Source: Chiloscyllium plagiosum
Taxonomy: Eukaryota
Direction of reading: 5' to 3'
Length of the DNA stretch: 64,000 nt
Assembly: GCF_004010195.1 (NCBI RefSeq)
Contig: NC_057719.1
Span: 47,741,808 to 47,805,807 of the forward strand
Below, piece by piece: positions 196-63,665 of the stretch (position 1 is its first letter; each line of letters starts with the position of its first letter). The notes beneath the pieces are model-generated. The model was not told the origin of the DNA. It ran no database searches and saw only the letters and a list, made by a program, of their open reading frames with translations. A program made the translations under genes and the position numbers.

Positions 196-322
196 AAAGC
201 TGAAAGAACTGCGGATGCTGTAAATCAGAGACAAAATTGCTGGAAAAGCTCAGAAGGTCTGGCAGCATCTGTGAAGATAAATCAGAGTTAATGTTTCAGG
301 TCTGGTGACCCTTCCTCAGAAC
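196..322 (-). mobile_element. Penelope-derived short repeat (third family) with hammerhead-like core at 293-319
   Basis: CUGAGGA-A-GGGUC-ACCA-GACCU-GAAAC-AUU followed by the gatgctgcc...tttccagc tail. Confidence 0.6.
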
Positions 323-2359
323 AGGATTAAGTAAATAACATGAATATTGAAAATCAGACGTCAGTGGTTCCTGGGTTAAGTTTGTTTCCAGAGACCTGAG
401 CATATAACTTGGGCGTAGTATGCAGTGCACCACTGAAGATATGTTTCATTATTAGTGATGTGAGCTGAAATTTTCTCTCAGGTCAGGAATGTAAAAAAAA
501 TGCTTTATAATAACTTCATAAAATATTTAGAAATGCATTGATATTATGAAGAAAGCTTTGCTAGTTATAAAGTGTAGAACAGGTCTCTCCGGTTGCAAAG
601 AACATGTCTTTTGTACAGACATCCCTGATAAGGCTAGACCTCAAAACCCATTCAAAAACCAACCTAGAAAAGGTTAAAAACAGCCTCTCAAAAATGAATA
701 AATCATTAAGGACAGGAAAAGATTTTTTTGAAGTGATCCATGCTAGTCAGTCCTCATCAAACAAAAGACGATTGGGAAAGGATGCTTCCCAGGACCTCAG
801 CTTGAAAGGCATCGAACAGAAGAGGCGAAAGCTAAAAACTGATTAGAAATGTCTGCCACCCCCAGTGGCAGAAATTGGCTTCATCAGTCATCTGGGACAG
901 TAAACCATCCTTGCTTGTCATGGGTTATATGCTTCTCCTGCCTACTTACCTGATGCATTATTTTTAAAACTTTGATTCTTAATAAACTACTTAATGAACT
1001 GTTTTTAAATCACTTAGAACCTCAAACTTCTCTTTTGGTTGACTGTCACTCCCAGGATACAATCTTACATAAATTTGGTGGAGGGAGAATATCAAGTCAA
1101 GAAACCCTACCAGAGTTAGATTCCTGAAACGATCCTTCAGTGCCAGGCAAATTGGCATCCAGAAAGCCATTTCTCATCCAATTATGGATGGCTACCATTG
1201 CCAAAATGTGACAGGGTGGTGGTCTCCCTGCCTCTGGACCAGAAGGTCTGCGTTCAAGGCCAAACTAAGGATGTGACGACCATAGAGGTGTGTCATAACA
1301 TGACCAAACAGATTGATTAAAAATAAATTAAGGATAGCAGGCAGCCTCCAGAGGTCCTCCAGAAATTACACATCGGTAGACCTACAGATTGAGCTGGAGA
1401 TGTGAGAGAGAAAAAAAGAAAGTGAGAGAAAGGGAGAGAGGAGTGCCTGTATCTTGGGGAAACCCCCTGAACCATTTCTAAAGTTTAAGACTAGAGGCCA
1501 CAAGCAGTGTTGGAAATGAATGATCACATGACATTAATTTGAAAAGCTTTTTCATCTTGGCCAATATTTGTCCCTCAGACCCAGAGCAGTAACAGAAATA
1601 AATCTCTTATTGCTAATTGTGGGAACTTGCTGCAGTCAAATTAAATTTCACCTTTCTTATGATGTAAACATAATTTCACTTTTCACACTAATCTTGCTTT
1701 TAATGAAGGTGTTAACCTCTTTAAAGTAAATTATGTAATGCATAAAGAAATACAACTCATGTTTTCATTGAAAATGTAACTAACTATCTAATTTCAATCT
1801 AAACTAGGCTGTAGCTTTGAACCAAGTCCAAACTTAAGTCAATTTCTCCAACAGAAAAATGATACAAGGAGACATTAAGGAAAACAGAAAAAAAGAAAAA
1901 AGCAAATAAAACTGTTTGGTAATGGCTTTACATTTACGGCAACAGAAAATGTCAAAAAGAATAATTTTAGTAATTTTTATATAATTTAAATAATTTTTAT
2001 CATTCATTGTTCTTAGTAATAGTTACATGATGGAACAGGTAGAATAGGTGTTATTATTTTCTGGTGACTGGTTCACCATGAGCATCAACAACAAATTGGT
2101 CTATCCAGCTCATAAGAAAGTAGATTTTATGAGGTTATACTTCCAATGTAGAACTTTACTGTAGAGTGTTCAGCTAAATTGCTGGTCCTCTCAAAAGAAA
2201 ATTATTGGAGGGAAAACTAAAATTAAAATCAATTTTCAAATTCAAGGTAAAATTTACCCACTGAAATACATATTTAAACCTCCCAGAAAATAAATATTAG
2301 CATTTATTTTAGGCAATTAATAAATGAAAAGTTAACCAATCATAAGTAAACATATTTAC

Positions 2360-2518: not shown

Positions 2519-2599
2519 CTATAAAATGGAGAAAATCATATCAGGTACTAAAATGAATTCACCATTCTTATACCAAAAGATTTCTTCAATGTTACTTAC

Positions 2600-2851: not shown

Positions 2852-4000
2852 GGACGAGGCATTCGACAAGGTTTCCCATGGGAGACTGATTAGCAAGGTT
2901 AGATCTCACGGAATACAGAGAGAACTAGCCATTTGGATACAGAACTGGCTCAAAGGTGGTGGTGGAGGGTTGTTTTTCAGACTGGGGGCCTGTGACCAGC
3001 GGAGTGTCACAAGGATCAGTGTTGGGTCCTCTACTTTTTCTCATTTACATAAATGATTTGGATGCGAACATCCAACTTACAGTTGGTAAGTTTGCAGATG
3101 ACACCAAAATTGGAGGTGTAGTGGACAGCGAAGAAGGCTGCCTCAGATTACAACAGGATCTTGACCAGATGGGCCAATAGGCTGAGAAGTGGCAGATGGA
3201 GTTTAATTCAGATAAATGTGAAGCGCTGCATTCTGGGAAAGCAAATCTGAGCAGGATTTCTACACTTAATGGTAAGGTCCTAGGGAGTGTTGCTGAACAA
3301 AGAGACCATGGAGTGCAGGTTCTTAGCTCCTTGAAAGTGGAGTCGCAGTAGATAGGATAGTGGTATGCTTTCCTTTATTGGTCAGAGTATTGAGTACAGG
3401 TGTTGGGAGGTCATGTTGCGGCTGTTGGTTAGGACATTGGTTTGGCCACCTTTGGAATGTTGCATGTAATTCTGGTCTCCTTATCGGAAAGATGTTGTGA
3501 AACTCGAAAGGGTTCAGAAGAGATTTACAAGGATGTTGCCAGGGTTGGAGGATTTGAGCTATAGGGAGAGGCTGAACAGACTGGGATGGTTTTCCCTGGA
3601 GCATCTGAGGCTGAGGGATGACCTTGTAGAGGTTTACAAAATTATGAGGGGCATGGATAGGGTAAATAGGCAAAGTATTTTCCCTGGGGTCAGGGAAGTC
3701 CAGAACTAGAGGGCATAGGTTTAGGGTGAGAGGGGAAAGATATAAAAGAGACCTACGGGCAACTTTTTCACACAGAGCATGGTACGGGTATGGAGTGAGC
3801 TACCAGAGGATATGGTGGAGGCTGGTACAATTGCTACATTTAAGAGGCATTTGGATGGGTTTTTGAATCGGAAGAGTTTGGAGGGATATGGGCTGGGTGC
3901 TGGCAGGTGAGACTAGATTGGGTTGGGATATCTAGTCGACATGGATGGTATGGACTGAAGGGTCTGTTTCCATGCTGTACATCTCTATGACCCTATGACA
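2852..4000 (+). mobile_element. CR1-clade LINE 3' fragment
   Basis: GVSQGSVLGPLLF, FADDTK, LERVQKRFTRMLPG; ctctatgac tail; frameshifted. Confidence 0.92.
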
Positions 4001-6769: not shown

Positions 6770-7281
6770 AGGAACCGCCTAGGAACCCTCCAACCACAAG
6801 GGATGAACTCGGATTTCACCAGTTTCCTCATTCCCCCTCCCCCCACCTTGTCTCAGTCAAATCCATCGAATTCAGCACCGCCTTCCTAACCTGCAATCTT
6901 CTTCCCGACCTCTCCGCCCCCACCCCAGTCTGACCTATCACCCTCACCTTGACCTCTTTCCACCTATCACATTTCCGACGCCCCTCCCCCAAGTCCCACC
7001 TCCCGGTGGATGGGAGATCCCCCGAGGTGATGAGGTTATGGACGGTCTGGGAGATAATGGTTTGTTTGTTCCACCTATCACATTTCCGACGCCCCTCCCC
7101 CAAGTCCCTCCTCCCTACCTTTTATCTTAGCCTGCTGGACAAACTTTCCTCATTCCTGAAGAAGGGCTTATGCCCGAATCGTCGATTCTCCTGTTCCCTG
7201 GATGCTGCCTGACCTGCTGCGCTTTTCCAGCAACACATTTTCAGCTCTGATCTCCAGCAAGTGCAGACCTCACTTTCTCCC
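6770..7281 (+). mobile_element. Penelope-like (Neptune-type) 3' fragment with terminal hammerhead motif
   Basis: GIY-YIG C-terminal remnant, C-rich tract and conserved tail. 11-bp TSD ctaggccactt at 6759-6769 and 7282-7292. Confidence 0.8.
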
Positions 7282-7948: not shown

Positions 7949-8548
7949 AAGGTGAAAGTGAGAACTGCAGGTGCTGGAGACTAGAGTCAAGAGTGTGGTG
8001 CTGGAAAAGCACAGCAGGTCAGGCAGCATCCGAGGAGCAGGAAAATCACTTTTGCCTGAAACGTAGATTTTCCTGCATTCAGGAAAAGGTTAGTAAGCAT
8101 TTCTATGCATGAAGCATTATAAATTTTTGGAATTCTGGATCAGTTGTCAACTTTAAATCCGAGATGGATAAATTTTGTTTAGCAAAATTATGAAAGGATA
8201 TGGACTAAAGGTAGGTAAATGGAATTAGGCCAAAGACCAGCCATGATCTCATTGAAGGGTGGACCAGGCTCAAGGGGCTGAATGGCCTCCTCCTGTTGTT
8301 ATGTTCTTCTGCTGTTGAATGCAAGATTATACAAGAATGGGGTCATGGAAGTGAGCCACATACTGCATGTGGCAAGCAGCAGAAAATTTGAGAAAAATTG
8401 TCAGGGCTCATGAAGAGAATGCCTCCATGAAACATCTTGAAGCTGACACAGCCAACATATGGAAAAGTTAGCCCATTGTTACTGGTTCTGGATTAGTGGT
8501 GCTGGAAGAGCACAGCAGTTCAGGCAACATCCGAGGAGCAGTAAAATC

Positions 8549-8576
8549 GACGTTTCAGGCAAAAGCCCTTCATCAG
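8549..8576 (-). ncRNA. Minimal type-I hammerhead ribozyme motif (intact core)
   Basis: CUGAUGA-A-GGGC-UUUU-GCCU-GAAAC-GUC on the minus strand. Confidence 0.7.
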
Positions 8577-8632
8577 GAATAAAGACAGAGAGCCTGAAGC
8601 ATGGAGAGATAAGCTAGAGGGGGGGGGGGGTG

Positions 8633-8938
8633 NNNNNNNNNNNNNNNNNNNNNNNNNNNNNNNNNNNNNNNNNNNNNNNNNNNNNNNNNNNNNNNNNNNN
8701 NNNNNNNNNNNNNNNNNNNNNNNNNNNNNNNNNNNNNNNNNNNNNNNNNNNNNNNNNNNNNNNNNNNNNNNNNNNNNNNNNNNNNNNNNNNNNNNNNNNN
8801 NNNNNNNNNNNNNNNNNNNNNNNNNNNNNNNNNNNNNNNNNNNNNNNNNNNNNNNNNNNNNNNNNNNNNNNNNNNNNNNNNNNNNNNNNNNNNNNNNNNN
8901 NNNNNNNNNNNNNNNNNNNNNNNNNNNNNNNNNNNNNN
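8633..8938. other. Assembly gap (306 N)
   Basis: Run of N inside a Penelope-like element, next to a poly-G tract. Confidence 1.
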
Positions 8939-10154
8939 GGGGTGGGGAGGGAAATATATCCCTGGTGGTGGAGTCTTTTTGGAGGTGGCAGAAATGTCGG
9001 CGGATAATTTGGTTGATGCGAAGTTTGGTAGGGTGGAAGGTGAGCACCAGGGGCGTTCTGTCCTTGTTACGGTTGGAGGGATGGGGTTTGAGAGCGGAGG
9101 TGCGGGATGTGGACGACATGCGTTGGAGGGCATCTTTAACCACGTGGGAAGGGAAATTGCGGTCTCTAAAGAAGGAGGCCATCTGGTGTGTTCTGTGGTG
9201 GAACTGGTCCTCCTGGGAGCAGATACGGCAGAGGCGGAGGAATTGGGAATACGGATGGCATTTTTGCAAGAGGTAGGGTGTTACTGGTGCCTTGTTTGCC
9301 TTAATTGTTTTCATTTAATTTGATCTTGATTGCTTTAAGAAACCTATTTTATGTATCTTGAGATTTAAAAAATGCTAATTATAAAGCCATACTTCATTGT
9401 TTTCATTTCAAATCCTTAATGGATCACTATTTGAAAAACATATGATACCATCTTTAACAATTCTGATCCAAATCATTGTGTATTTATGAGTGTATTAAGT
9501 CTGAATGAGTCGATATCTTTGGGGCAAAGGCAACAAAAGGGAAAATGATTATAATAAATGGGGTGGGGGGGGCAGCAACTGTATGTTACTTCATGGTAAA
9601 TATTTTATGTTGCATAAAGTGTTTAAGAAGATTTTCATCATTCAGTGAGGAGCAAATTGAGTCATGAAACAACTTAGCTTTCACCGGAAAAGCTCCCCAG
9701 CAACATTTGATGTGTTGGGAAGGCCTGTGTGCAAAATCCAAGTCAGATTTCCCATTGAGACGGCAATAGGAAAATTGTATTTCCTCCCCCTTTCCTCTTT
9801 GTGTGATCTAATGTGGGTTTTGAAAACCCGAAAAAAAAGTTCTTCCTCCTCAGAGAATTTGTGATCACTGGGGCAGTCTGCTATGGAGTCAAAAATGTTT
9901 TGAAAGGTAAATGCAAAATGACACCTTCAAATGTTAGTATTGTAGTCATGTTTTATCTTTTTTACAGTTCTAGGATGTCTGCCATCAGGACCTTAGTATT
10001 GTTAGCTTTTATACTCTTCAGATGAATTAGGATTCTAAGAGAATCAAAGGACATGGGTTTAATGCAGAAAGGTGAAACTGAAGTAGCTCGGTTATTGAAT
10101 GGCAAAGGGCTGAGTGGTGTACTCATATTCCGAGTGACATTTGGAAAGATTTGT

Positions 10155-11657
10155 AGCTCAGGTTGAGGTTCTGGATGTAAGTTTGCTCGCTGAGCTGGAA
10201 GGTTCGTTTTCAGATATTTCGTCATCATACTGGGTAACAGCATCAGTGAGCCTCCAGTGAAGCGCCAGTGGTATGTCCCGCTTTCTATTTATGTGTTTCA
10301 GCTTTGTTAGGTGGGTGATGTCATTTCCAGTTCTTTTTCTCAGAGGATGGTAGATGGGGTCCAAATAGATGGATTTATTGAAAGAGTTCCAGTTGGAATG
10401 CCATGATTCAAGGAATTCTCATGTGTGTCTCTGTTTGGCTTGTCCGAGGATAGCTGTGTTGTCCCAGTCAAAGTGGTGTCCTTCTTCATCTGTATGTAAG
10501 GATACTTGTGAGAGTGGATCATATCTTTTTGTGGTTAGTTGATGTTCATGTATCCTGGTGGCTAGTTTTCTACCTGTTTGTTCGATGTACTGACTGTTAC
10601 AGCCCTCCCAACCATCTAACCCAAACTTTGGGTCCGCTGCATAGATGACACCTTTGCCATCACCAAATGAAACAAATTAGAGGAAACCTACAACACCATC
10701 AATAATATGTTCACTGGCATAAAATTCACAAAAGAGGAAGAGAACAACAACAAACTGCCATTCCTACATGTAGAGCGAAAACGCAGTGGAGAACATCAAA
10801 CCTGCATCTACAGAAAAACAACACACATGGACCAAATACTTAACCAATCATCCCAACACCCACAAATGAAGCTGCATTAGGGCATTATTTCACCAAGCTA
10901 CCATACACTGCAGCACAGGGGAACTACAAAGAACAAAAGAGAAATACCTACACAGCATGTTCAAGAAGCATGGGTATCCAATAAACACAGTCAGCTAATT
11001 CCTCAGCAACAAACCCAAACAAGCAGACACAATGCACTCAGAAACCCTAGCCACTTTACCTGACATCAAAGACATCTCTGACATGAGCTCCAGACTACTC
11101 AGCCCTCTTAGCATCATGGTAGCCCACAAATCTACCAACACACTTAAACAGCAGCTAATGGACTTAAAATACCCTATACAATGAATGTATAGGGTATACT
11201 ATTTACAAAATACCTTGCAAGGACTGTACCAACACTACATCAAACAGGCAGAAAGCGAGCTCTACCAGGATACATAAACATCAGCTAGCCACAAAAAGAC
11301 TTAACCCACTATCACTGGTATCCTTTCATACAGACAAAAAAGGACACCACTTCGACTGGGACAACACATCTATCCTAGAACAAGCCAAACAGAGACATGC
11401 ACATAAATATCTAGATGCATGGCATTCCAACCGAAACTCTATCAATAAATATATCGACTTGGACCTCATCTACCATCCTCTGAGAAAAAGAACTGGAAAT
11501 GACATCACCCACCTAACAAAGCCGAAACACATAAATAGAAAGTGGAACATACCACCCGTGCTTCACCAGAGGCTCACTGATGATGTTACCTAGTAGGGTG
11601 ATGAAACGTTTGAAAACAAACCTTCCAGCTCAGTGAGCAACCTTACATCCAGAACTC
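10155..11657 (+). mobile_element. Penelope-like element (Poseidon-type): RT C-terminus and GIY-YIG remnant, with an inverted copy of its 3' end on the left
   Basis: PKLWVRxIDDTF, IYKIPCKDC and later endonuclease motifs in 10601-11655. About 10165-10600 is the reverse complement of about 11230-11655. Confidence 0.85.
11577..11613 (+). ncRNA. Minimal hammerhead motif of the Poseidon-type element
   Basis: UCA-CUGAUGA-UGUUACC-UAGUAG-GGUGAU-GAAAC-GUU-UGA. A degenerate inverted copy lies at 10213-10246. Confidence 0.65.
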
Positions 11658-14475: not shown

Positions 14476-14481
14476 TGCAAA

Positions 14482-19040: not shown

Positions 19041-19043
19041 CCA

Positions 19044-23079: not shown

Positions 23080-25750
23080 CATAGAGTCATAGAGTCCTAC
23101 AGCTCAGAGACAGGTCCTTTGGCCCAAACTGGTCCATGCCAACCAAAATGTCCACCCACGCTAACCCTATTTCTCTGCACTTGGCCCATACTCTTCTAAT
23201 TCTGGATTAGTGGTGCTGGAAGAGCACAGCAGTTCAGGCAGCATCTGAGGAGCAGTAAAATCGACGTTTCGGGCAAAAGCCCTTCATTAGGAATACAGGC
23301 AGAGACCCTGAAGGGTGGAGAGATAAGTGAGAGGAGAAAGTAGCATAGAGTACAATAGGTAATTGGGGGAGGGGATGAAGGTGATAAGTCGGTGGGGGGG
23401 GATAGGTGGAAAAGAAGATAGGCAGGTAGGACAAGTCATGGGGACAGTGTTGAGCTGGAAGTTTGGAACTGGGGTGAGGTGGGGGAAGGGGAAATGAGGA
23501 AACTGTTGAAGTCCACATTGATGCCCTGGGGTTGAAGTGTTCTGAGGCGAAAGATGAGGCGTTCTTCCTCCAGGCGGTCTCGTGGTGAGGGAGTGGCGGT
23601 GAAGGGTCTAATCCTTTCCTATCCATGAATTTGTCCAAATGCCTTTTAAATATTGTTAATGTATCCCCCTCAACTACTTCCACTGGCAGCTCATTCCATA
23701 TGCGTACCACCCTCTGTGTAAAAAAGTTGTCCCTCAGGTTTTCTTTTATTCTTTCTCCTCTAACCTTAAATTCATGCCATCTAGTCCTCGATTCTCCTAC
23801 CCTGGGAAAAAGACTGAGTGCATTCACCCTATCCATGCCTCTCATGATCTTACACACCTCTATAAGATGTCCCCTCAGTCTCCTACGCTCTAAAGGAAAA
23901 AGTCCTAGCTTGTCCAACTTCTCTCTATAACTCCATTGAGTCCAGGCAACATCTTTGCAAATTTCTTCTGCACTCTTTCCAGTTTAATAACCCCCTTCCT
24001 ATAACAAGCTAACCAAAACTGAACACGATACACCAAATGTGACCTCACCAATGTCCTGTATAACTGAAACATAACCTCCCAATTCCTATACTCAATGCCC
24101 TGACTGATGAAGGCAAGTATGCTAAAAGCCTTCTTCACCGCCTCGTCAACCTGTGACTCCACTTTCAGAGAACTGTGAACCTGAACTCCAAGATCCCTCT
24201 GTTCGACTATACTCCTTAAGACCCTACTATCCACCGTGAAATTCCTGCTTTGATTTGACTTTCCAAAATGCAACACTTCACACTTATCTACATTAAACTC
24301 CGTTTGCCATTTCTCGGCCCACTTCTCCAGCTGATCCAAGTCCTGCTGCAATTTCTGATAACCTTCCTCATTGTCCATGAAACTGCCTATTTTAGTGTCA
24401 TCAGCAAACTTATTAATCATACCTTGTACATTGTCATCCAAATTATTGTGTAGATAACAAACACTAATGGGCCTGACACCTGAGGCTTTCCACTAATCAC
24501 ATGCCTCCAGTCTGACAAAAGCATCCTTCCACTATTACCCTCTGCTTCCAACCATTGAGCCAATTTTATATCCAATTTGCCAGCTCGCCAGCCATGTGGA
24601 ACCTTATTAAAGACCTTACGAAATCCATATAGACTACATCTACCGCCCTGCCCTCATCAACCTTCCAGTCACTTCATCGAAGAACTCTAACGAATTTGTA
24701 AGTCATGATCTCCCACTCACAAACCATGCTGACTACTCTTAATCAAACCCTGTTTTTCCAAATACATGTATGTCTCATTTCTGAAAATCTTCTCAAGTAA
24801 CTTACCTTCCACAGGTGTTAAGCTTACTGGTCTATAGTTCCCAGGCTTTTCTTTGCAGCCCTTCTTGAATAATGGCACAACATTCGATCCCTGCAGTCTT
24901 CCAGGACCTAATGATGATGCAAAAATCTCCGCCAGGACCCCTGCAAATTCTTCTCTAACCTCTTACAGTGTTGTTGGATTTTTCTGGTAAGGACCAGGAG
25001 ATTTATCCACCTTCATACATTCTAATACGTCCAACACCACCTCTACTGTGATATGGACTGTCCCCAAGATATCACCACTAACTTCCCTAAGTTCCCAAGA
25101 CTTCATGTCTTTCTCCGCGGTAAACACAGAAGAGAAATATTCATTGAGGACCTTACCCATCTCCTGCAGTTTTACACATACTGTCCACTTTAGTCCTTGA
25201 GGGGCCCTATTCTCTCTCTAGTCATTCTTTTTCCTTTAATATACTTAAAGTACCACTTTCGATTCACCCTAATCTTCTCAGCCAGCTCTATCTCGTGCCC
25301 CCTTTTTGCCCTCCTGATTTACTTCTTCATAAACTCCTGTATTCCCTGTATACCTTTAGGGATTCCCTTAGTCCCAGCTGTCTGTACCTGAGCCACGCCT
25401 CCTTTTTTCTGGTAAAAGCCTCAGGATCTCTTGTCATCAAGAGTCCCTAAGGCTGCCAACCATCCCTTTCTGATGAAGGGCTTTTGCCTGAAATATGGAT
25501 TTCTCCTGCTCCTCGGATGCTGCCTGGCCTGCTGTGCTTTCCCAGCACCACTCTAACCTTGAACCTTGCCTTTCACCCTCACAGGAACATACAGACCTTG
25601 AATTCTAGCTATTTCACTTTTAAAGGCCTCCCACTTACCAAAGGTCCCTTTGTCTGCAAACAAACTACTCCAAATCAACTCTAGCAAGCTCCTGTCTAAA
25701 TTCATCAAAATTCGCCTTGTCCCAATTTATAACTTGAACCTGTGGACCAG
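23080..25750 (-). mobile_element. CR1-clade LINE ORF2 fragment, interrupted by Penelope pieces at 23201 and 25463
   Basis: ORFs 23905-24441 (FADDTK) and 24963-25160 (LNEYFSSVFT, KSPGP). Confidence 0.9.
23201..23606 (-). mobile_element. Penelope-like 3' fragment inserted in a CR1 3' end
   Basis: Same tail as the 8487 copy. TSD tctaat at 23195-23200 and 23607-23612. Confidence 0.8.
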
Positions 25751-28485: not shown

Positions 28486-29925
28486 TGGATGGTACCAAAC
28501 TTCTTGAGTGTTGGTAGAGCTGCACCCATCCAGGCAAACAGTGAACACTCAATCACACTCCTGACCCATGTGCCATTGATTGTGAACAGGTCTTGAGAGA
28601 CTCAGGATGCAAGTTACAAGCTGCAGTATTCCCAGCCTCTGAGCCGCTTCCAAAAACACAGTATTCACAAGACGAAAGTGGGGACTGCATATGCTGGAAA
28701 TTAGAGTGGAGAGTGTGGTTCTGGAAAAGCACAGGCGGTTCGGAGCATCTGAGGAGCAGGAGAATCAATATTTCAGGCAAAAGCTCTTCATCAAGAACCA
28801 TCTCCACAAGGCTAGACCAGGTCAGTTTCTGGTCAATGGTAACCCCCAGGATGTTGATAGCAGGGGATTCAGCAATGGCAGTATCATCAAATGCTATGAG
28901 GCAAAGGCCAGATTGTCTCTTATTAAAGATAGCTGTTGCCCAGCATTTCTGTGGAACAAATATTATTTGGAACCTCTCAGCGTGAACTGGAATGTACATT
29001 TGCTGCAATTGGATAATAACAACACTGGCATCTGAAGAGCCATGAATGGTGCTGAACATTGATGATTGCACAATGACCATTCCCACTTCTGACCTTATAA
29101 TGAAGAGCAGGTCATTGATGAAGTAGCTGAAGATAGTTGGGCCTAGGACACCATCCTGAGGAACTCGTGTAGAGACATCCTGGAGCTGAGACTCATAAAA
29201 TCAGAAGTGAAGATCTTCACTAATTACTGCTCAATGTTCATCACTGTTCCTGATTCCCAGTGACTGAAGCATGCCCACATGCAGCAAGACTTGGCCAACA
29301 TCCTGTTTGGGCTGACAGTTGACAATTAACACTAACACCGCATATGACAGGCAATGACAACTCCAAAAAGAGAGAACCTAACCATCACCCCACAACAACC
29401 AATGGCACTAGATGACAGAATCCCCCGCTATCAAAATTGTGGGAGCTACCATTTAGCCTTATACATATTGCAACAAGAGCAGACTAGATGACAGGACACC
29501 TGCAGCAACTCACCTCTTGATTCCCTACAGCCTGTCCACCATTTACAATTTACAAGAGTGTGATGGAACACTCCCGACTTGCTTCAATGAGTGCAACCCC
29601 AAACAACACTCATTTGACAACCGTACAGGACAAATCTGCCCTCCTGACTAGCACTATATTCACAAAGATCACATTTCTCCCCCACCACACATGCTCAGTA
29701 GCAGCAGTGTGCCCCACCCACAAACTGTACTGCACAAATTCACCAACCCTCCCCAGCCAGCACCTTCCGAACCCATGACCTTCTGAACCCATGACCAATT
29801 ACAATCTTAAAGGACACATACAGCGGCTATGTGGAAACACCACTATCTACAAGCTCCCCCCACCCAGGCTTTTGTCCATCTTGACCTGGAAATACATCGC
29901 TGTTCCCTCAGGGTCACTAGGTTAC
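28486..29925. mobile_element. Two divergently oriented fragments of a second non-LTR (CR1/L2-group) family, with a Penelope tail inserted near 28675-28795
   Basis: AESPAINILGVTIDQKLTW remnant on minus, and the same motif in plus orientation near 29415. Related pieces at about 26996-27220, 56600-57130 and 60480-61680. Confidence 0.6.
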
Positions 29926-32309: not shown

Positions 32310-32880
32310 CACAGCTCTCGATGTGGTCTCCTCTACACTGGGGAGACAAGACGCCAACTCATGGAACTTTTCAAGGAACATCTCTGGGACACATGCACCA
32401 AACAACCCCACTGCCTTGTGGCAAACCACGTCAACTCACTCTCCCACTCTGCCAAAGACATGCAAGTTCTGGGCCTCCTCCATTGCCAAATCCAAGCTTG
32501 TAGGAAGAATGCCTCATCTTCCATCTTGGGATCCTTTGACCACACAACATCAACATCAACTTCACTAGTTTCCTAATCTCCCCTCTCTCCACCTCAACCT
32601 CCAACTCAGCACCACCCTCTTGAACTGTCCATCTACCTTCCCATCTATCCGCTCCACCCTCCCCTCCGACCTATCACTATCACCCCGTAACTGCATCTAC
32701 CTCTCACCTTCCTAGCTACCTTCCCCCCACTCCTACCCTCCTATTTATCTCTCAGCCTTCTTCCTCCCCACACCCTCCCTCACATTCCTGATGAAGGGCT
32801 TAAGAGCTAAAAATCAACTCTCCTGCTCTTCAGATACTGTCTGATGTGCTGTGCTTTTCCAGCGCCACACTTTTTCAACT
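32310..32880 (+). mobile_element. Penelope-like GIY-YIG/3' fragment preceded by a SINE head (32273-32310)
   Basis: CGLLYTGETRRQL...EHL...VANH endonuclease remnant. Degenerate hammerhead at 32788. Confidence 0.8.
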
Positions 32881-33213
32881 CTGTCTGCCAGGATTCACAC
32901 TTAAAACATGAAAGAAGCAAGAATACTCAGCAGCTCACGTACCATCAGCCCACAAACCTTTCTTCACAACTATGCTATAACGTAAAATGGATGGTAGTTA
33001 ATCACAGCCTCTTGTAAATCTCTCCCAGTTTTCATTTTCATTGAAGATAATAATTGAAGGATCATACTGGAGAGAAGTTGTGCATATTTTTAAACTTTCT
33101 TCTTTCAACTATACATTCACTAAACAAACTATCAAAGTTTCAGTTGTGACTAAGCTCAAGTGAATCCAGTTAACAATCCTGGAGCAAAATTCATAAGTAT
33201 TTACCTACAAAAG

Positions 33214-35962: not shown

Positions 35963-35965
35963 ATG
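35963..35965 (+). CDS. LGALS3: Galectin-3-like start codon at the 3' end of an exon (ATG|gtaag)
   Basis: ttcATG|gtaagaa donor in CpG-containing unique sequence. Phase-0 joining gives M-DELA-LEDALG, resembling galectin-3 N-termini (MADNFSLHDAL). Confidence 0.6.
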
Positions 35966-36408: not shown

Positions 36409-37304
36409 CACAGCCCCCCTCACCCCAAAAACCCCTAATACCCGGCCACAGCCCCCCTCACCCCAAAAACCCCTAATACCTGGCCACAGCCCCCCTCACT
36501 GTAGACTGAAGATTGGCATTTCGTGGGAAGACCACAAAAACAAAATAAGTTAACTACTAGAGATGTGACTTTCTTTAAACAAAAAGGTAGAAAATGCTGA
36601 CAACATTCAGGCGGCATCCGTGAGGAAACCAGGCAAGTTAATTCATGTTTAAAGCCTGGGACTGATGTTGGATCAGTTCGTTAATTGTTCACAGGAGAAT
36701 TTTTTTAAAAATTACCACTGTCTTCGTGCTATAAGCTGATGGTTGTTCTCTAAATCATTGGCTTTAAGTGAGATCTACATGGGTGATCTAGAGCCATAGT
36801 TTCATAGGGATTTATCCACCAAGATATCTTTAAAATACAAGCTTAGAGAACGGTGCAGATGAATTCTGATACTCTCCCCTCGACAGAAATACATACGTTT
36901 TCACCATGTTTTATTTGTTTTCAAGCAACTGTGCAAGCAGAACAACAAGTACTATACAAAAGACATCTGCATTATTACCATTCATATCTATGCTTGAACA
37001 AATGCCACAAACTATCATTTTGAAGTTACCTTTTCATATCCCAGTTTACTCATACTGCTGAAACTAAGTGTACTCTTGTTTTATCATAAGGGTTTTGGAG
37101 TTCAGGGAGTTGCTTCTGTTAAACCTGTTGCCATTGTAGGTAATTGTAGCTCTGTTTCTGTTTCTGTAGAAACCATATTCTTAGCACAGTTGCTAATAAT
37201 AATAATTTTCATTCTGAGAACAGTAGCTACAAACTACCAGGTGCAATGCAGTTTTACTGGGCTTTGTTGACATTTATGGTGATACCAGTCACACACCTAC
37301 TCTA
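36409..37304. repeat. Right arm of the inverted duplication
   Basis: See left arm. Carries the extra 12 bp near 36925-36938. Confidence 0.95.
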
Positions 37305-39383: not shown

Positions 39384-39514
39384 TCATTCCTGATGAAGGG
39401 CTTATGCTGAAACGTCAATTCTCCTGCTCCTCGGATGCTGCCTGACCAGCTGTGTTTTTCCAGCACCACACTCTTGACTCTGATCTCCAGTATCTGCAGT
39501 TCTTACTTTCTCCT
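39384..39514 (+). mobile_element. 131-bp non-autonomous Penelope-derived unit: hammerhead motif (39390-39416) plus tail
   Basis: CTGATGA-agggcttatgct-GAAAC-GTC. 14-bp TSD agagaaat(t/c)tcccc at 39370-39383 and 39515-39528. Confidence 0.8.
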
Positions 39515-41314
39515 AGAGAAATCTCCCCACCGAGCTTTTGAGTATCTCAAGCTCCTGAGCATCAGACTCCTACTTATATCAGCATCTAACTTTTTGTGTT
39601 TCCAGGAATAAAGTCCTAACTTCTACAAACCCTCAATCTCAGTAGCATCCGAGTAAATTTCCTTTATATCTATCGGCTTTCTGAAGTGTGTTGCCTGGAA
39701 TTGCTACTATTCTATAGTGGAGGCTTAACCTAACTTATTGAAATGTACAAGGTTCTGAAGGGGCCTGCCAGAGTAGACTCTGTGAGGTTATTTCCTTTGG
39801 TTGGGGAATGTGGAACAGAGGGATACAATTCCATCTTTGTATTTTCCACATTTTAAGCTTTAGTTGAAATCTTATTACTTGTTTCTTTTTCTTTTCATGT
39901 ATTGCTCCTTTTCTCTTTCACTCATTCTCTTTCTCTCTCCCTCTCCCTTTAGCCATGTCCTAGAAAATAGAATATTTACAAATAAAAAATTATTGCTGAC
40001 TGTTAAATTCCTTCTTGCTCCACACCCCCTTCCTGATGAAGGGCTTATACCCAAAACATCGATGCTCCTGCTCCGCGGATGCTGCCTGACCGGCTGTGCT
40101 TTTCCAGCGCCACACTCTTTGACTCTGATCTACAGCATCAGCAGTCCTCACATTCTCCTCTCTGCAACCATTCATGCTTTGTAATGTAATGAAAATGCAG
40201 ATGTTAATGATACAATGATTTAACACTGAAGTTGGTAATCATGTGCTTTTGAATCACTGAGAAGAGAGGATGGAATAACCTGGAATGGAGAGGTGTGCTA
40301 TAGAGATCAGTACCATATGTAATGGTGCACAAAGAACAATTTATTGGAACTCCTGGAAGTCAGACAGTACAAACATTAAGATTAGAATTCTACCATTCAG
40401 TAAGAAAACGGTTGGTCTGTTTGTTTCAAATTCCACATTCGCAATTATTCCTATAACCCTTAAATGCATTGCCTGAAAAAAATCTATCTCTGGCTTAAAA
40501 ATATTCAAGCAGCCCACTTCCACTACCTTCTGAGGCAGAGAGTTATAAAATCATACAGCCTTCTGGGAGACAAAGATTCTCCTCTTCTCTATCCAAAAAA
40601 AGATGACCTCTGATTTTTAAATCCAAGGTCCCCGCCCCACCCCACATTGTTGGATTCACCCGTAAGAGGAAACATAACTTCCATGTCCACCTTGTTAAGA
40701 CCATTCAGGATTTTAAATACTTCAATTAAGTCACATTCTGCTGTCCGAAACTTCAGTAGAGACCTGCCCATTCTGTCCAACAATATTTCACTATTGGTTA
40801 AACCAGGGACCTGGATGTTCACACCATGTAGAATCAGTACAGTTTAAGGGAGCGATCTGTCAGCAATGCAGGATAGAATCTCCAAGTTCCAGACTTTATT
40901 TCAGCCTAATGCATAAGGTCTGATAAAGTGAGGATGGTATCTGTAAAGTTAGTCAAGATTGTCCTACTGGACCATTGGTACTTTCTCATGAGAGAGAAAT
41001 GACTGATGGTGGTTTAATCTGAGGGCTACCATGTCTCAGGTTAAGGGAGAGATTGAGACGGTGAGTCTATCAGTAAAGACAGATCAAATTAACTTGCATA
41101 TTTATTATGTTTGGAAGTTGTGAGCTTATTTATGTTATAATTCAGTTCTAAAATTTAGAATTTATTTCTTAGTGACAAAAATTAATTTTGATTTGGTTTA
41201 TTATTGTCACGTGTACTGAGGCACAGTGAAAAATGTTGTCTTGTGTGCTTTACAGGCAGATCGTACTATACAAGTGCATTAGAGTAATTTTAACTTGTCA
41301 CCTTTGTTTTTCAG

Positions 41315-54577: not shown

Positions 54578-55710
54578 TAGAGTCATAGAGATGTACAGCA
54601 TGGAAACAGACCCTTCAGTCCAACCCGTCCATGCTGACCAGATATCCCAACCCAATCTAGTCCCATCTGCCAGCACCCGGCCCATATCTCTCCAAATCCT
54701 TCCTATTCATATACCCATGCAGATGCCTTTTAAACGTTGCAATTGTACCAGCCTCCACTCTTCCTCTGGTAGTTCATTCCACACATGTACCACCCTCTGC
54801 GTGAAAACGTTGCCCATAAGGTCTCTTTTATATCTTTCCCCTCTCACTCTAAACCTATGCCCTCTAGTTCTGGATTCCCCGACCCCAGGGAAAAGACTTT
54901 TTCTATTTATCCTATCCATGCCCCTCATGGGTTTATAAACCTCTATAAGGTCACCCCTCAGCCTCCGACGTTCCAGGGACAACAGCCTCAGCCTGTTTAA
55001 TTTCTCCCTATAGCTCAAATTCTCCAATCCTGGCAACATCCTTGTAAATCTTTTCTGAACGCTTTCAAGTTTCACAACATCTTTCCTATAGGAAGGAGAC
55101 CAGAATTGCACACAATATTCCAACAGTGGCCAAACCAGTGTCCTGTACAACCGCAACATGACCTCCTAACTCCTGTACTCAATACTCTGACCAACAAAAG
55201 AAAGCATACCAAACACCTTCTTCACTATCCTATCTACCTGCATGCAATTAAGTGTAGAAATCCTGCTAAGATTTGCTTTCCCAAAATGCAACACTTTGCA
55301 TTTATCTGAATTAAACTCCATCTGCCACTTCTCAGCCCATTGGCCCATCTGATTAAGATCCCAATGTAATCTGGGGTAACCTTCGCTGTCCACTACACCT
55401 CCAATTTTGGTGTCAACTGAAAACTCACTAACTATACCACTTACGCTCACATCCAAATCATTTGTATAAATGGTGAAAAGTAGTGGATCCAGCACCAATC
55501 CTTGTGGCACGCCACTGGTCACAGGTCTCCAGTCTGAAATGCAACCTTCCATCAACACCCTCTGTCTTCTACCTTTTGAGTCAGTTCTATATCCAAATGG
55601 CTAGTTCTCCCTGTATTCCGTGAGATCTCACCTTGCTAACCAGTGTCCCATGGGGAACCTAGTTGAATGCCTTACTGAAGTCCATATTGATCACTTATAC
55701 TGCTCTGCAG
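54578..55710 (-). mobile_element. CR1-clade LINE 3' fragment just upstream of the W-exon
   Basis: ORFs 54707-55159 and 55166-55558. Confidence 0.92.
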
Positions 55711-56599: not shown

Positions 56600-57228
56600 C
56601 TCAATTGAAACGGCCATGGCTCTTGCATGGTACAGAAGCTCTTACCCGACATGAAGGTGAAGGCTGAATGTTGTCGAGGTCTTGGTGCATTTGGATATGG
56701 ACTACTTCAGTCATGGAGGAGTTGGCCTTGTGCAGTAATCAGCAATCATCCTCACTTTAGACCCTCTGAAAGAAGGAATGTCATCAATGAGGAGTTGAGA
56801 TGTTTTCGTCCTGAATCCCACTGACTCCAGTTTTGCTGGGACTCCTTGATGCCAAATTCAGCCAATTGCTGCCTTCGTCATGGACAGTCACTCTTGCCTC
56901 ACTACTAGGATTCGGCCCCTTTGATCATGTTTTGGACAAAAGCTGTAATGAGGTCAGGAGCTGAGTGGCTCTGGAGGAACTCAAACTATATAGCAGGTTT
57001 TTGCTGAGCAGATGCTTAATAGCACTGACTACAACCTTCCTTCACGTTGTTGATCATTGAGAATAAACTGATAGGAGGTATCAGATTTGTTCGGCTTTTC
57101 ATGGGCAGCATCTACTTGGGCTATTATCCACATTGCTGGATACTTTAAATGGAAGTTTGGAAGTATCTAAATTTGTTGGCACTTTAACACAGCAAATAGA
57201 AATAAAATTGAATTCAGTAACTGTTGGT

Positions 57229-58228
57229 CATAGAGTCATAGAGATGTACAGCACAGAAACAGACCCTTCGGTACAACCCGTCCATGCTGACCAAATATCC
57301 CAACCCAATCTAGTCCCACCTGCCAGCACTCAGTCCATATCCCTCCAAACCATTCCTATTCATATACCCATCCAAATGCCTCTTAAATGTTGCAATTGTA
57401 CCAGCCTCCACCACTTCCTCTGGCAGCTCATTCCATACATGTACCACCGTCTGTATGAAAAGGTTGCCCCGTAGGTCTTTTTTATCTTTCCCCTCTCGCC
57501 CTAAATCTATGCCCTCTAGTTCTAGACTCCCCCACCCCAGGGAAAAGACTTTGTCTATTTATCCTATTCATGCCCCTCATGGGTTTATAAACCTCTATAA
57601 GGTCACCCATCAGCCTCCGACGTTCCAGGGACAACAGCCTCAGCCTGTTTAACTTCTCCCTATAGCTCAAATTCTCCAACCCTGGCAATATCCTTGTAAA
57701 TCTTTTCTGAACGCTTTCAAGTTTCACAACATCTTTCCGATAGGAAGGAGACCAGAATTGCACACAATATTCCAACAGTGGCCTAACCAATGTCCTGTAC
57801 AGCTGCAACATGACCTCTCGACTCCTGTACTCAATACTCTGACCAATAAAGGAAAGCATACCAAACGCCACCTTCACTATCATATCTACCTGCGACTCCA
57901 CTTTCAAGGAGCTGTGAACAAGGATCGGTGCTGGGTCCACTACTTTTTATCATTTGTATAAATGATTTGGATGTGAACATAGCAGGTATAGTTAGTAAAT
58001 TTGCAGGTGACACCAAAATTGGAGGTGTATTGGACAGCTAAGAAGGTTACCTCAGATTACGACGGGATCTTGATCAGATGGGCCAATGGCTGAGAAGTGG
58101 TACATGGAGTTTAATTAAGATAAATGGAAGGTGCTGCATTTTGGGAAAGCAAATCTTAGCAGGACTTATTCATTTAATGGTAAGATCCTAAGGAGTGTTG
58201 TTGAACAAAGAGACCTTGGAGTGCAGGT
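57229..58228 (-). mobile_element. CR1 insertion with inverted 5' part (57919-58228 on +)
   Basis: The plus piece ends ...ggagtgcaggt exactly where the minus piece begins tcacagctccttg... in family coordinates. Confidence 0.88.
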
Positions 58229-58277
58229 GGTAAACATAGAGTAGTTATGTATGTAAACTTACTTTCATTTTCTCCAG

Positions 58278-58427: not shown

Positions 58428-58914
58428 ACACCAAAAAAATTATTTGAATGTTATCTCCAGCACTTACTGAATATACATACATATATATTTTTCTGTTCAT
58501 TATTTTCTATCCAAACTAATGGCTGATTTGGATTGATTAAAAAGCTGTAACATAATTGAGTATTCCGACAGATTCCCAAACTTAGAATGAAGACTTTTAT
58601 TAATTGCATTTACTTTACAATTCTGCTATCATTGAATCTGTCTGAGAAAACCAGAGAGTTATTATAACAGGCCATTCAGACCATTGAGTCTATGGGAGTA
58701 TTTTCCCCAAATAAAATGGCTTGCTTTTCCTGCTTCTTGCTTGTTTTATTACTCTTTAATACTCCCCCTTCTCAGACAATATCTAATTGCTTTCAAAATG
58801 ACTCAAAGTTTTCTTCATGATTGAGGAAGTCACATTTCACACAGTACTTTTTTTTCCAATCCCTAATTTTCTTGTGTTTGTATTTGACCCTGTCTGCTCA
58901 AGTAATTCAACAGA

Positions 58915-59098
58915 GACAAAAAAAAACTGTAGATGCTGGAATCCAAAATAGACAGGCAAGCGGCTGGAAGAACACAGAAAGGCAGGCAACATCAGGAGGT
59001 GGAGAAGTCAACGTTGGTTACTCCCAAAATGTTGACTTCTCCACCTCCTGATGCTGTCTATCTTTGTGTGTTCTTCCAGCCTCCTGCCTGTCTATCTT
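58915..59098. repeat. Fold-back Penelope-tail derivative (arms 58948-59015 and 59028-59095)
   Basis: Imperfect ~68-bp inverted repeat of the gatgctg...ttccagc tail family. Confidence 0.75.
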
Positions 59099-59904
59099 AA
59101 TAATTCATCAACCAATACAACCAATTTGTTTTTACATATCTTTATTGTTAACCCTATAAGACTGTGAACACCTTTTATTAGGCCATTTCATAAGCTTCTC
59201 AACTACAAGGTGTAAAATGCTAAATTCTCAAGAATTATATCTTCATAATTGGAATTGAAACCTAGCATCATTTCAGTGAATTTATGTTGCATATCTTCCC
59301 TTATTCCCATTTCTTTATATCTTTGCAACTATACACGGTACACCACCTACAGCTTATATATTTATTCATCCAAATCCTCAGATTGGAGCTGGAGCTGACT
59401 CCAAAACAGCTATTCCTTTCTAAAATGTGTGAAGCTTTGTAGCTTTGTGTAGTCCATCATATACCCACTAATCACCCTGACGGATGACCACCTCCCACCC
59501 CACCCCACCCCACCCCCATACACCAAGCACTCTCATTTTTAGGTACCCCACTCACTTCCCCATCTGTCCCATCACTCCCCCCGCTCACTCCCCAGGGCCT
59601 TCGGATGAATCCTTCCTGACATACGGCAGTAAGTACAAGAACAAACGTGTAAGTTTTGGCCTACCAGGTTGCTCCTCTGCTAAGTGGACCCTCTCCCCAG
59701 TTTTCACTGATGCATGCATTTGGGAGTGGCCAGACTCTGAAATTAGCCAGATAAACCATTAAAAGGTAAATGGGTGACAAATAGAGAATTATTGTCAATC
59801 AAACCTGCTCCAACTCTAATCTGAAAATCTGGGCCAATACTGTGATTTAAAATTGAGGAATTGATTATGTGTGTAATTTGACCAAACTTTATATTTACTG
59901 ATGC

Positions 59905-59944: not shown

Positions 59945-62039
59945 AGAACCTTTGTAGGAGGATTACACTGTCACTGTAATCTCATGATTGCATGGGTCAC
60001 ATTACAAAACAAAAATACTTTATCAAATAATCAAGCTGACCAATGAAATATCTTCTCTGGTTTTAAACAATAAAATCTATTAACCAAATTTCTTAAACAT
60101 AATTATTTGTAATAAACCAAACGGAAGTTGTTTAATGAAGGTACAATAATTGGGTAATGTACATAGTTTGTAATACAGTAATTGAAATACATTTCCCTTC
60201 TAAATATTTCCAAAATACAAACAAACCACACACTTTTCAAGGGAAAAAACGTTTTTCCACAGAGACCGGCCCATGTGTTTTTCAGTAAAGCCAATGGTTT
60301 ATCGTCCTTGAAGACAAAAGGATAAAGCAGAGAATATTACAGATCCTGTTGCTGTGATGTTTTGACATATGGCAAAATCACTAATTATGCACTGAGCTCA
60401 ACAAGGCTGGTAGTATCTGTGACAAGAGAAAGAAAGTTAATGCTTCAAATCCATAAGACTCAGCTTTATAGCTGAGAATTGACTGTCCACAGTATCCATT
60501 GCCTTCAGTTGTATTTTGATATCACATGGAGTGAATTGAATGGGCTCAAGACTGGGCATCTGTCATGCTGGAGGAGGCTAAGGTGTTGCAAATACTTCAG
60601 CCTCATCATTTGCAGTGATGCTTTGGATGCTTCCATCATTGAGAATGTGGATATTTGTGGAGCATCTTCCAATGAGTTGTTTAATTGTCCAAAACCATTC
60701 ATTAGAGAATATGGCAGAACTATAGCTCTTATATCTGACATATTCATTGTGAAATCCCTTAGTTCTATTTAATATTTGCTGCTTATGCTCTCTGGTATGC
60801 ACATAGTCCTGCTTTGTAGCTTTACAGTAATCCCTCCTGCACTTTTCAATGAACCAGTGTTGATCCTGTGGCTTGATCATAATGATGGAATGGGGGATTT
60901 GTGGGGCTATAAGTTTGCAGATTGTGTTGAGTATGCTGCTGTTGTTGATGACTCACAGCATCTCATGGATGCCTAATCTTGAGTTGCTCGATTTCTTCTG
61001 AATTTGTCTAATTTAGCATAGTGGAGGGTATGCTCAATGTGAAGGAATGACTGTTTCCACGAAAACTATGTAGCGGTTACTCTTACCAGTACTTTCATGG
61101 ACAGATGCATCTGCAGCTGGCAGATTGGTGAGGGTGAGGTTAAGGATGTCTAACCCTCTTGTTGATTCCTTCACCTCCTGCCGACCAGTCTAGCAGCTGT
61201 GTCCTCTAGGATTTGACAAGTTCAATCGGTAGTGCTGCTGGTGGCGGACATTGAAGTACCCCACCTAGAGTACATTCTGCGTCCTTGCCATCTCCTCTGT
61301 TTTTCCTGTAGATAGTAGTCAACATGAAGCAATACTGATTCATCACCCAAGGGAAGACACTGCATGGTAACAGCAGGAGATTTTCTTGCCCGTGTTTGAC
61401 TTGATGGTCTGAATCAATCACAGGGTAACGTCTCTCTATCTTTTGTGCTACTACTGCTGGGTCTGTCCTGCTGTTTGGAAGGGCTGGCAGTATTGGTATC
61501 TGAGACATTGTAAGGTATGATTCCATTGGTATGACTGTGTCTTACCCTTACGTGATGAGTCTATGAGAAACAGCTCTCTCAAAACTTGGTACAACCACCC
61601 CCTACCCTCCAAAAGCATTGGTAAGGAAGACTTTACAGGATCAGCAGGGCTGAATTTACAGTTGCTGTTCCTGGTACCTTGGTTGATGCCAAGTGGTCCA
61701 CCGAAATACTTTTTAACAGTTGGGTGAAATTGAAAGGCTTATTAGATCATCTGAGAGTCAACCAGTCAATATCAATAGGTGGGTTTTCACGGTCATCATT
61801 AAACTTGAATTCCAGATTTTTAAAAAAGAATTATCGTTCTCAATCTGCTGTAGTAGGATCCGTGCCAGGTTCCCAGGTCATTACCTGGATCTCTAGATTC
61901 CTTGACCAACGACAATACCATGACAACAACATTGCTGATATCTGCCACCTCCTTCCAGAAGAGCAGGGAGCCTGCATAACTAGTGCTACTCAAGACCAGC
62001 ACAGACCAGAATCTCTTCTTTGGCTCCTCCCAAGAATTT

Positions 62040-63665
62040 AGATAAGTCCCCAAGGCCAAAGTTACAATGCGAAGTGAGGAATGAGATTGCTGTGCCTCTG
62101 GTGATGATCTTTGCATCCTCACTCTCCACGGGAGTAGTGCTGGATGATGGAGAATGGCAATTGTTCCTCTGTTCAAGAAAGGGGATTAGGGAAATCCCTG
62201 AGAATTACAGACCAGTCAGTTGTACATCTGTGGTAAGCAAGGTACTGGAAAGGATTCTGAGAGATAGGGTTCATGACTATTTGGAAAAACATAGTTAATT
62301 AAAGGTAGTCAGCATGGTTTTGTGAGGGGCAGGTCATGCCTCACAAGCTTTATCAAGAGACGGGACAAGTTGACGAAGATTGAGCAGTGGATGTGGTGTA
62401 TATGGATTTCAGTAAGCGTACTTGATAAGGTCCCCCACAGTAGGCTCATTCAGAAAGTTAGAAGTTATGGGATACAGGAAAATTGGCTGGCCAAAAGAAG
62501 ATAGCAAGTGGTAGTGGAAGGAAAGCATTTGCCTGGATGTTGGTGACCAGTGGTATACGCAGTGATCTGTTCTTGAGCCTCTGCTCTTTGTAGTTTTTAT
62601 AAATGACTTGGATGAAGAAGTGGAAGGGTGGGTTAGTAAGTTTGCTGATGATGCAAAGGTCGGTGGTGTTGTAGATAGTGTTGAGGGTTGTTGCAGGCTA
62701 AAACAAGACATTAACAGGATGCAGAACTGGGCTGAGAAGTGGTAGATGGAGTTCAACCTGGATAAATGTGAAGTGATTAATTTTGGAAGGTCAAACTCGA
62801 ATGCTGAATGCAGGGTTAAAGATAGGTTTCTTCATCGTGTGGAGGAACAGCAGGATCTTGGAGTCCACGTACATAGATGCATCAAAGTTCCCACCCACGT
62901 CGATAGGGTTGTTAAGAAGGCATATGGTGTTTTGGCTTTCATTAACAGGGGGATTGAGTTTAAGAGCCGCAAGGTTTTGCTGCAGCTCTATAAAACCTGG
63001 TCAGACCACACTTGGAATATTGTTTCCAGTTCTCGTCGCCTCATTACAGGAAGGATGTAGATGCTTTAGAGACGGTGCAGAGGAGATTTACCACTATGCT
63101 GTCTAGATTGGAGGGCATCCTTATGTAGAGAGGTTGAGTGAGCTAGGGCATTTCACACTGGAGTAAAGAAGGAAGAGAGGTGACTTGATAGAGGTGTACA
63201 AAGTAATGAGAGGCATAGACAGTGTAGATAGCCAGACATTTTTCTCCAATACAGAAATGGCTGTCACAAAGGGTCATAATTTTAAGATGATTGGAGGAAT
63301 GTTTAGATGAGATGTCAGAGGTAGGTTTTTTATGCAGAGAGTGTGGCTGCATGGAATACACTGCCAGCGGCGGTGGTAGAGTCAGAGACATTTAAGCGAC
63401 TGCTGGTCCAGCACATAGGGGGCAGGAAATTGACAGGTGTGTAGATTAGGGGGGAAAGTGAGGACTGCAGATGCTGGAGATCAGAGCTGAAAATGTGTTG
63501 CTGGAAAAGCGCAGCAGGTCAGGCAGCATCCAAGGAGCAGGAGAATCGACGTTTCGGGCATGAGCCCTTCTTCAGGTGTGTAGGTTCGGTTGATTTTAGA
63601 TAAAGATAAATGCTTAGCACAACATGATGGGCCGAAGAGCCTGTACTGTGCTGTCCTGTTCTATG
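62040..63665 (+). mobile_element. CR1-clade LINE fragment interrupted by a hammerhead-bearing unit
   Basis: PENYRPVS, GRSCLT and FADDAK motifs; 3' tail. Confidence 0.88.
63548..63575 (-). ncRNA. Minimal type-I hammerhead ribozyme motif (intact core) in a ~125-bp insertion (63451-63575)
   Basis: CUGAAGA-A-GGGC-UCAU-GCCC-GAAAC-GUC. Imperfect TSD caggtgtgtag(a/g)tt(a/c)gg. Confidence 0.7.

Follow-up and report, generated by a model that had tools for sequence, protein, structure and literature searches.

Minimal hammerhead ribozymes recur along a 64,000-nucleotide stretch of Chiloscyllium plagiosum DNA (contig NC_057719.1, positions 47,741,808 to 47,805,807; hereafter the window). In our assessment they lie in the pseudo-long terminal repeats (pLTRs) of endonuclease-coding Penelope-like elements (PLEs), and the short units with a target site duplication (TSD) at both ends are likely dead ends, DNA made by copying the element mRNA's capped and uncut 5' leader, and not a short interspersed nuclear element (SINE). 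Ribozyme motifs of this kind are known; the informative part is the pattern of ends, which makes the insertion mechanism of PLEs testable. How pLTRs, tails and inverted arms are built up, and what role the hammerhead plays, are questions left open in the papers cited below.

All twelve motifs listed in the initial annotation were recovered at their coordinates and strands with the letters described there, and they have the make-up of minimal type I hammerheads of PLEs, with the core CUGANGA, GAAA and NUH in type I order. Stem II pairs in each of three families (GGGC/GCCC, GGGTC/GACCY and GTYACC/GGTGAY), here termed A, B and C without regard to that order, stem III is the palindrome ACGT in all of them (palindromic 15.2-16.2), and an extra base before stem II as well as a G10.1-C11.1 pair are likewise common to the three. 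The compensatory change of stem II across families was seen by inspection and is not a formal covariation score; a further compensating change is found in stem I, which is ATTC/GAAT or GATT in family A and AGTT/AACT in family B. Within family A variation is confined to the loop, of which five variants occur in 15-46 distinct intact-pattern copies each. Minimal hammerheads are reported to cleave as dimers (review: PMC6765202); unconstrained cofolding of the hammerhead did not yield the active fold.

Core and cleavage triplet are intact in four of the twelve motifs (8549-8576, 63548-63575, 11577-11610 and 39390-39416, the last with stem II one base short), the remaining eight being decayed. The bare motif CTGANGA-N8-26-GAAA is met seven times in the window as against 5.0 expected, and with seven or more in 21 of 100 shuffles this count is not above chance; pattern matches at 20453 and 26132 were taken as chance and set aside. 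An Rfam scan of the window gave no hammerhead model match at E<=10. The motifs are nevertheless regarded as real, because they belong to dispersed repeat families and because the strict core pattern is in excess in a genome sample of 1,159,236 non-N bases (1.16 Mb, taken at round-number positions on large contigs of the 3.56 Gb genome), where 57 matches stand against 0-1 in each of five mononucleotide shuffles.

A profile search of this sample with the unit retrieved 242 arms, one per 4.8 kb. The rate of roughly one copy per 5 kb given in the initial annotation was thus borne out, but as the genome average and not as a local feature, the window being typical. Two related copies (7950-8076 and about 58912-59100) were absent from the earlier list. 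Its description of tiny TSD-flanked units fits three of the twelve motifs (197-325, 39384-39514, 63448-63576). Short solos account for six of the twelve, three of them (25470, 28794, 40033) without a clear TSD; four motifs (7156, 8576, 23290, 32788) stand at the ends of 0.4-0.8 kb fragments reaching into an open reading frame (ORF), and those at 10213 and 11577 are the two arms of a single 1.5-kb inverted insertion.

Host elements and the ends of their copies

Among the best 30 genome matches to 63447-63576, 11 run upstream into an element body, eight have their start no more than about 17 nt from the core, 10 follow an inverted copy and one is masked. The body of family A holds, on the strand of the unit, a reverse transcriptase (RT), a CxxxxCxxC linker and a GIY-YIG domain, ending about 170 nt before the ribozyme; at locus L143 a single ORF comprises RT and C-terminal GIY-YIG (Pfam RVT_1, E 6e-8; GIY-YIG, E 4e-4, just under the cutoff), and CxxxxCxxC precedes GIY-YIG in both L011 and L143. 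Judged from this Cys-rich linker, which is also present in Nematis (PMC8557442), family A is classed as a Neptune-type PLE. The window copy of family C has an RT motif, thumb and GIY-YIG with no Cys-rich linker (three-frame translation of a decayed copy, read by eye) and is classed on these features as Penelope/Poseidon-type, while family B is putatively Neptune-type by its likeness to A downstream of the motif.

In the numbering used here the CTGA core of family A runs from q2, the C directly preceding it is q1 (window 63576), the predicted cleavage follows q29, and q128 is the last position of the unit. When the start of the ORF served as bait, 22 of the 30 loci had position 128 continuing to the ORF, with its ATG at q164, and it was by way of the ORF start, not by walking upstream from RT, that the 5' end of family A was reached. 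Since the unit is joined to the ORF on either side, it is the pLTR, 3' end and 5' leader alike. Upstream continuation into the 3' untranslated region (UTR) was seen in none of seven leader-to-ORF loci (those of 12 listed loci in which the leader reaches the core, unmasked and with no immediate inverted arm).

The 5' ends of copies are not randomly scattered, and several short units do begin at the ribozyme with TSDs of their own, as the initial annotation had held. With 234 arms scored (242 minus 8 affected by N or an edge), 126 start at -10 to +10, 23 at +11 to +26, 9 at +27 to +34 and 21 further downstream, whilst 5 start at -39 to -11 and 50 further upstream. Genome-wide, the exact 18-nt core pattern with non-C in its first place gave 46,440 matches, 17,752 of which extend exactly to q-5, and in a hand count of the first 100 exact-core matches listed, on contig 1, 61 end within about 6 nt upstream, one ends at -8 and 38 run on. 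The boundary of short copies is the first base of stem I; with the cleavage site about 30 nt downstream of it, it is not made by ribozyme cutting. That the edge is not set by the ribozyme itself can further be argued from family C, which, with a like ribozyme, showed no 5' pile-up there in 26 rows, 24 of which (hand count) extend well upstream of the ribozyme, most of them through a TATA-like box. The 3' ends of arms form two clusters, at about 85-100 and 120-128, which short and long copies have in common and which mark two sites, near 90-100 and 128.

Close head-to-head pairs contain 100 of the 242 arms, mostly with one arm reaching to 122-128 and the other to 82-107, and a TSD of 10-21 bp was found in 32 of 49 pairs as against none of 959 mismatched controls. 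Palindromic junctions are common among them. Insertions of endonuclease-positive (EN+) PLEs are described as having an inverted 5' pLTR, a 30-40 bp tail and a TSD (PMC8557442; PMC3846280), and this layout, the tail being on one arm, is present here.

A further regularity concerns the base before the fixed edge. Position q-2 is the A of TCATTC in family A and the first base of the 4-bp stem I, and family B has TCAGTT at that place; the surroundings of q-2 are taken by us to be initiator-like. Long copies have C at q-3 in 61 of 62 cases. In a test drawn from 91 short-type young arms of all loci collected for it, G precedes the start in 18 of 25 arms that begin exactly at q-2 (ATTC) as against 16 of 64 with other starts (Fisher p 7e-5). 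A non-C base at q-3 was found genome-wide in 4,987 and 2,067 matches for two subfamilies, with G/A/T of 69/18/13 and 47/42/11 in hand counts of the first 100 listed for each, where the background of G is 26% of non-C bases. The second subfamily has the extra G in 12 of 30 loci although the sequence behind its cut site cannot template G, partly as a clean untemplated base and partly shared with the TSD or the partner arm. It stands clean once between TSD and element, in L331, and between the arms in L313, L334 and L338. A template jump to the cleaved product, considered as the source of the G, is weakened by this second subfamily.

Explanations for the fixed edge

If the short units are copies of a capped leader, RNA polymerase II would start at the initiator-like TCATTC (A) or TCAGTT (B), the A of which is the first base of stem I. 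RT would prime at either of two sites inside the leader, as it does in vitro for the anole element, copy the ribozyme uncut and run off at the cap after about 95 or 130 nt, a C being added opposite the cap. A single primed strand would give a solo; if both nicked strands were primed, at the two sites, the product would be a tailed and a tail-less arm paired head to head with a microhomology join, and priming in the 3' pLTR would yield ordinary long copies, variably truncated. Chimeras in which an ORF-start piece is followed by a unit from q-2 would fit template jumps after run-off. Described elsewhere are two internal RT start sites, with both strands nicked and extended and uncut RNA as the template (PMC11167929), an internal promoter with a transcription start site (TSS) within the pLTR (PMC2377424) and an extra G marking the cap in full-length L1 insertions (PMC11702581).

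Several points weigh against this account. The template cannot be assigned copy by copy, as 5' and 3' pLTRs have the same sequence; upstream extension of paired arms was limited by the scoring script, so that their bin is filled partly by construction, and old subfamilies that lack a long reference may have been miscalled as short. By the rule applied, TSDs were found in just 10 of 34 short solos, as against 4 of 660 controls. Some of the 25 arms in the test of the G come from baited loci or are both arms of one pair and are hence not fully independent, and in the second subfamily A (42) nearly equals G (47), 12 of the 42 A coming from six palindromic joins. RT can add C without a cap. A poly(A) single-cell run, searched for the RNA 5' end, showed no site at which many molecules begin; most reads continue into flanks that are unlike one another, and their ends fall loosely at this same edge, a pattern that mirrors the DNA copies and is not informative about the start of transcription. 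No ORF of family B was found, and walking upstream from RT recovered no intact pLTR-ORF-pLTR copy in one piece.

All short copies could instead be ordinary 5'-truncated copies of the 3' pLTR, made when RT, on meeting the ribozyme, stalls there or joins by microhomology and adds a non-templated base. The two 3' ends are indeed common to short and long copies, AT at the solo junction is in many cases also part of the TSD (6 of 30 loci), and 5' truncation is the standard reading (PMC4209133; PMC8557442). RT would, however, reach the 3' side of the structure first (+35 to +45), and a stop at that side was rejected because the ends pile up at the 5' edge; moreover, family C shows no pile-up with an even longer stem II, G is enriched at one start position only, and leader-to-ORF copies share the same start, which together render such truncation unlikely. 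Fold-back self-priming on an antisense template, as proposed for palindromes of rotifer Penelope (PMC3846280), would apply to the head-to-head pairs only, whose frequent palindromic junctions suit it; yet the arms end at the two sense-strand start sites, an extra G may occur on both arms (L270), and solos have the same ends, so we give this route very little credence.

The initial annotation had favoured a ribozyme-bounded, SINE-like family with master copies of its own, mobilised in trans by PLE RT. A fixed 5' edge, small size, own TSDs and very high copy number are what such a family would display, its solos could be transcribed from the internal promoter, and pLTR-derived retrozymes have been proposed (bioRxiv 10.64898/2026.07.22.740005). 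A separate family was not upheld, the whole unit being the pLTR and 5' leader of the autonomous element, so that the head of the unit is not unrelated to its partner but is the element's own leader. A tree built from 89 columns of 86 arms, of which 31 are long and 55 short, leaves many forks unresolved; across it the label short or long changes 21 times, as against a mean of 25.8 after shuffling, as few changes occurring in 12-14 of 500 shuffles; at least six changes are forced by well-supported branches, and a single origin appears in 0% of 200 bootstrap trees. With short and long copies thus intermixed the SINE reading loses support, although the weak clustering of labels that remains, including one supported clade of five short rows only, leaves room for occasional re-mobilisation of solos, which may take place. 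That all-short clade appears to be the loop-CTGT subfamily, of which the same sample also contains long copies (L031, L032, L271), and the youngest subfamily (97-100%) mixes long, solo and paired forms. The priming RNA of the anole element reaches past the start sites (PMC11167929), into a part absent from solos. Overall we consider a SINE-like family of this kind improbable.

That ribozyme cleavage, by a retrozyme or circular RNA route, makes the RNA ends which define the units was proposed in PMC4209133; intact cores are abundant (57 in 1.16 Mb), and the window copy at 7950-8076 starts near the cut site. However, 9 of 234 arms start at +27 to +34 as against 126 at -10 to +10, and cleavage is dispensable for insertion of the anole PLE in vitro (PMC11167929). 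Tandem hammerhead arrays are missing from the 64-kb window; the genome sample holds 10 same-strand neighbour pairs less than 500 bp apart, none inspected as an array and with no Tandem Repeats Finder (TRF) scan of the sample. Cleavage in another register, at a CUC just upstream, was discarded on inspection, since stems I and III would not pair and the triplet is missing from other subfamilies. We regard the cleavage route as highly improbable.

Carried beyond the window, the capped-leader account suggests a wider proposal, which is tentative and in our view has somewhat less than an even chance. In Neptune-type PLEs the hammerhead would run from nucleotide +1 of the capped mRNA, and RT would routinely prime both nicked strands within the 5' leader, making a strong-stop-like leader copy the dominant product, with several hundred thousand arms here; pLTRs, tails and inverted arms would all stem from two-ended leader priming and template jumps, and the ribozyme would be a dimer- or protein-gated decapping switch of the element on its own mRNA. 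Should the fixed edge be the capped start, the genome would preserve on a very large scale where RT started and stopped; this record would map the promoter, show that the template in vivo is uncut RNA and predict the products of in vitro target-primed reverse transcription (TPRT), and such repeats should be annotated as PLE by-products rather than as SINEs or retrozymes.

Copies and neighbouring repeats in the window

Table 1. PLE copies in the window, with coordinates counted from its first base.
Copy	Position	Strand	Hammerhead and other features
Family B short solo pLTR/leader copy	197..325	-	Hammerhead 293-319 with its triplet decayed to ATT; copy begins 6 nt upstream of the CTGA core; perfect TSD of 13 bp (184-196, 326-338)
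Family A long 3' fragment	6770..7281	+	End of GIY-YIG domain, 3' UTR, hammerhead 7156-7183 (GAATC defect), tail; 11-bp TSD; short foreign insert inside
Family A fold-back copy	7950..8076	-	Short inverted hammerhead piece, then forward arm from about the cleavage site (q29-30); no clear TSD
Family A long fragment	8486..9254	-	RT-thumb coding 8940-9254; intact hammerhead 8549-8576; ends at inner 3' end (about q93); we infer one continuous copy across the N gap 8633-8938
Family C Penelope/Poseidon-type insertion	10132..11653	+	Inverted 3' arm 10132-10606 (hammerhead 10213-10246) with tail of about 36-38 nt; forward part an RT-thumb-GIY-YIG fragment with hammerhead 11577-11610; 11-bp TSD, one mismatch
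Family A long 3' fragment	23200..23606	-	End of GIY-YIG, 3' UTR, hammerhead 23263-23290 (G5->A); ends at inner 3' end
Family A short solo	25467..25556	+	Decayed hammerhead 25470-25494; inner 3' end; TSD looked for, none found
Family A short solo with tail	28670..28797	-	Hammerhead 28770-28794, decayed; no clear TSD
Older family A long 3' fragment	32311..32900	+	GIY-YIG coding part 32316-32620; hammerhead at 32788, decayed
Family A short solo with tail	39384..39514	+	Intact core with stem II shorter by one base; copy begins 6 nt upstream of CTGA; TSD of 14 bp, one mismatch
Family A short solo with tail	40030..40159	+	Decayed hammerhead at 40033; no clear TSD
Old head-to-head pair, related family	58912..59100 (approximate ends)	.	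Junction within hammerhead remains
Young family A short solo with tail	63448..63576	-	Intact hammerhead 63548-63575; 11-14 bp TSD; 39 other genome copies at 97-100% identity

Apart from these copies, an old decayed Neptune-type RT fragment (30194-31097, 30-48% identity to the L143 protein) is set apart from the fragment at 32311-32900 by 1.2 kb of unrelated DNA. An inverted duplication of about 900 bp lies at 34258-37304, its arms (34258-35160 and 36390-37304) being 98-100% identical; it contains a 38-bp minisatellite (35051-35699, 17 copies) and further short rearranged pieces (36160-36500), and has the look either of a fold-back artefact of the assembly or of an inverted duplication that is very recent. 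An abundant LINE-like (long interspersed nuclear element) repeat family, which by its look we take to be CR1-type, is present in many copies (2955-3999, 14486-16042, 23607-24447, 51638-52668, 54569-55575, 57222-58255 and 62633-62897), and two tandem 163-bp copies at 21646-21974 are 98% identical.

Elsewhere in the genome, the ORF of family A carries repeats rich in Pro and Thr close to its N-terminus, and pieces of this 5' region have grown into 72-bp and 213-bp tandem arrays in several places (L143, L149, L171, L186-L190, L205-L219). The chimeras (L223, L224, L226, L229, L231-L233, L244, L249) consist of the leader and 90-200 nt of ORF start, followed by a second unit from the fixed edge, which is the pLTR-ORF-pLTR layout minus most of the ORF; the bait had selected for the ORF start. 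Short tandem duplications of about 29-38 nt within the leader (L081, L092, L231, L237), some of which double the hammerhead core, suggest repeated re-priming.

Relation to known systems

The literature found contains no report of a fixed start at stem I, of mapped PLE 5' ends or of a cap-derived G, the search having covered sources other than subscription journals, Repbase and closed supplements. Closest in structure are the minimal hammerheads which Cervera and De la Pena (2014, PMC4209133) reported for the pLTRs of metazoan PLEs, with the same core, extra base, G10.1-C11.1 pair, short stem I and palindromic remnant of stem III. There, too, single dispersed copies prevail, with some opposite-strand pairs 100-700 bp apart, and they are read as truncated PLEs. 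The counts given are about 4,000 in coelacanth and 9,000 in Xenopus, as against roughly 175,000 strict cores extrapolated here (57 per 1.16 Mb, large contigs); unlike in the present study, 5' ends are not mapped and no extra G is described in the accessible text.

Insertions of EN+ PLEs (PMC8557442; PMC3846280) share with ours the inverted arm, the tail on one arm, a TSD around the whole and solo pLTRs, but the commonest product here is an ORF-less solo or pair with a fixed start. Those papers explain palindromes by antisense self-priming and solos by deletion. Non-LTR retrozymes of animals (Li et al. 2026, bioRxiv 10.64898/2026.07.22.740005), whose sampled hosts include one chondrichthyan, are likewise non-coding, hammerhead-bearing, related to pLTRs and present as dispersed monomers; what defines them, however, are tandem repeats bearing two or more hammerheads, none of which are seen in the window.

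Full-length L1 insertions (PMC11702581) also show an extra 5' G, and twin priming at two primed ends leads to inversion. L1 differs in that it primes at the poly(A) end and its two cDNAs cover adjacent parts, whereas both arms here copy the same 5' leader. In the in vitro TPRT of the anole Poseidon element PAc (Frangieh et al. 2024, PMC11167929), two internal RT starts bound the tail and both strands are extended on an uncut template, as would be the case here. PAc differs as a member of the Poseidon clade, with an ORF that starts inside the ribozyme, from family A with its Cys-rich linker and ATG at 164, and the accessible text of that study presents no cap or TSS analysis.

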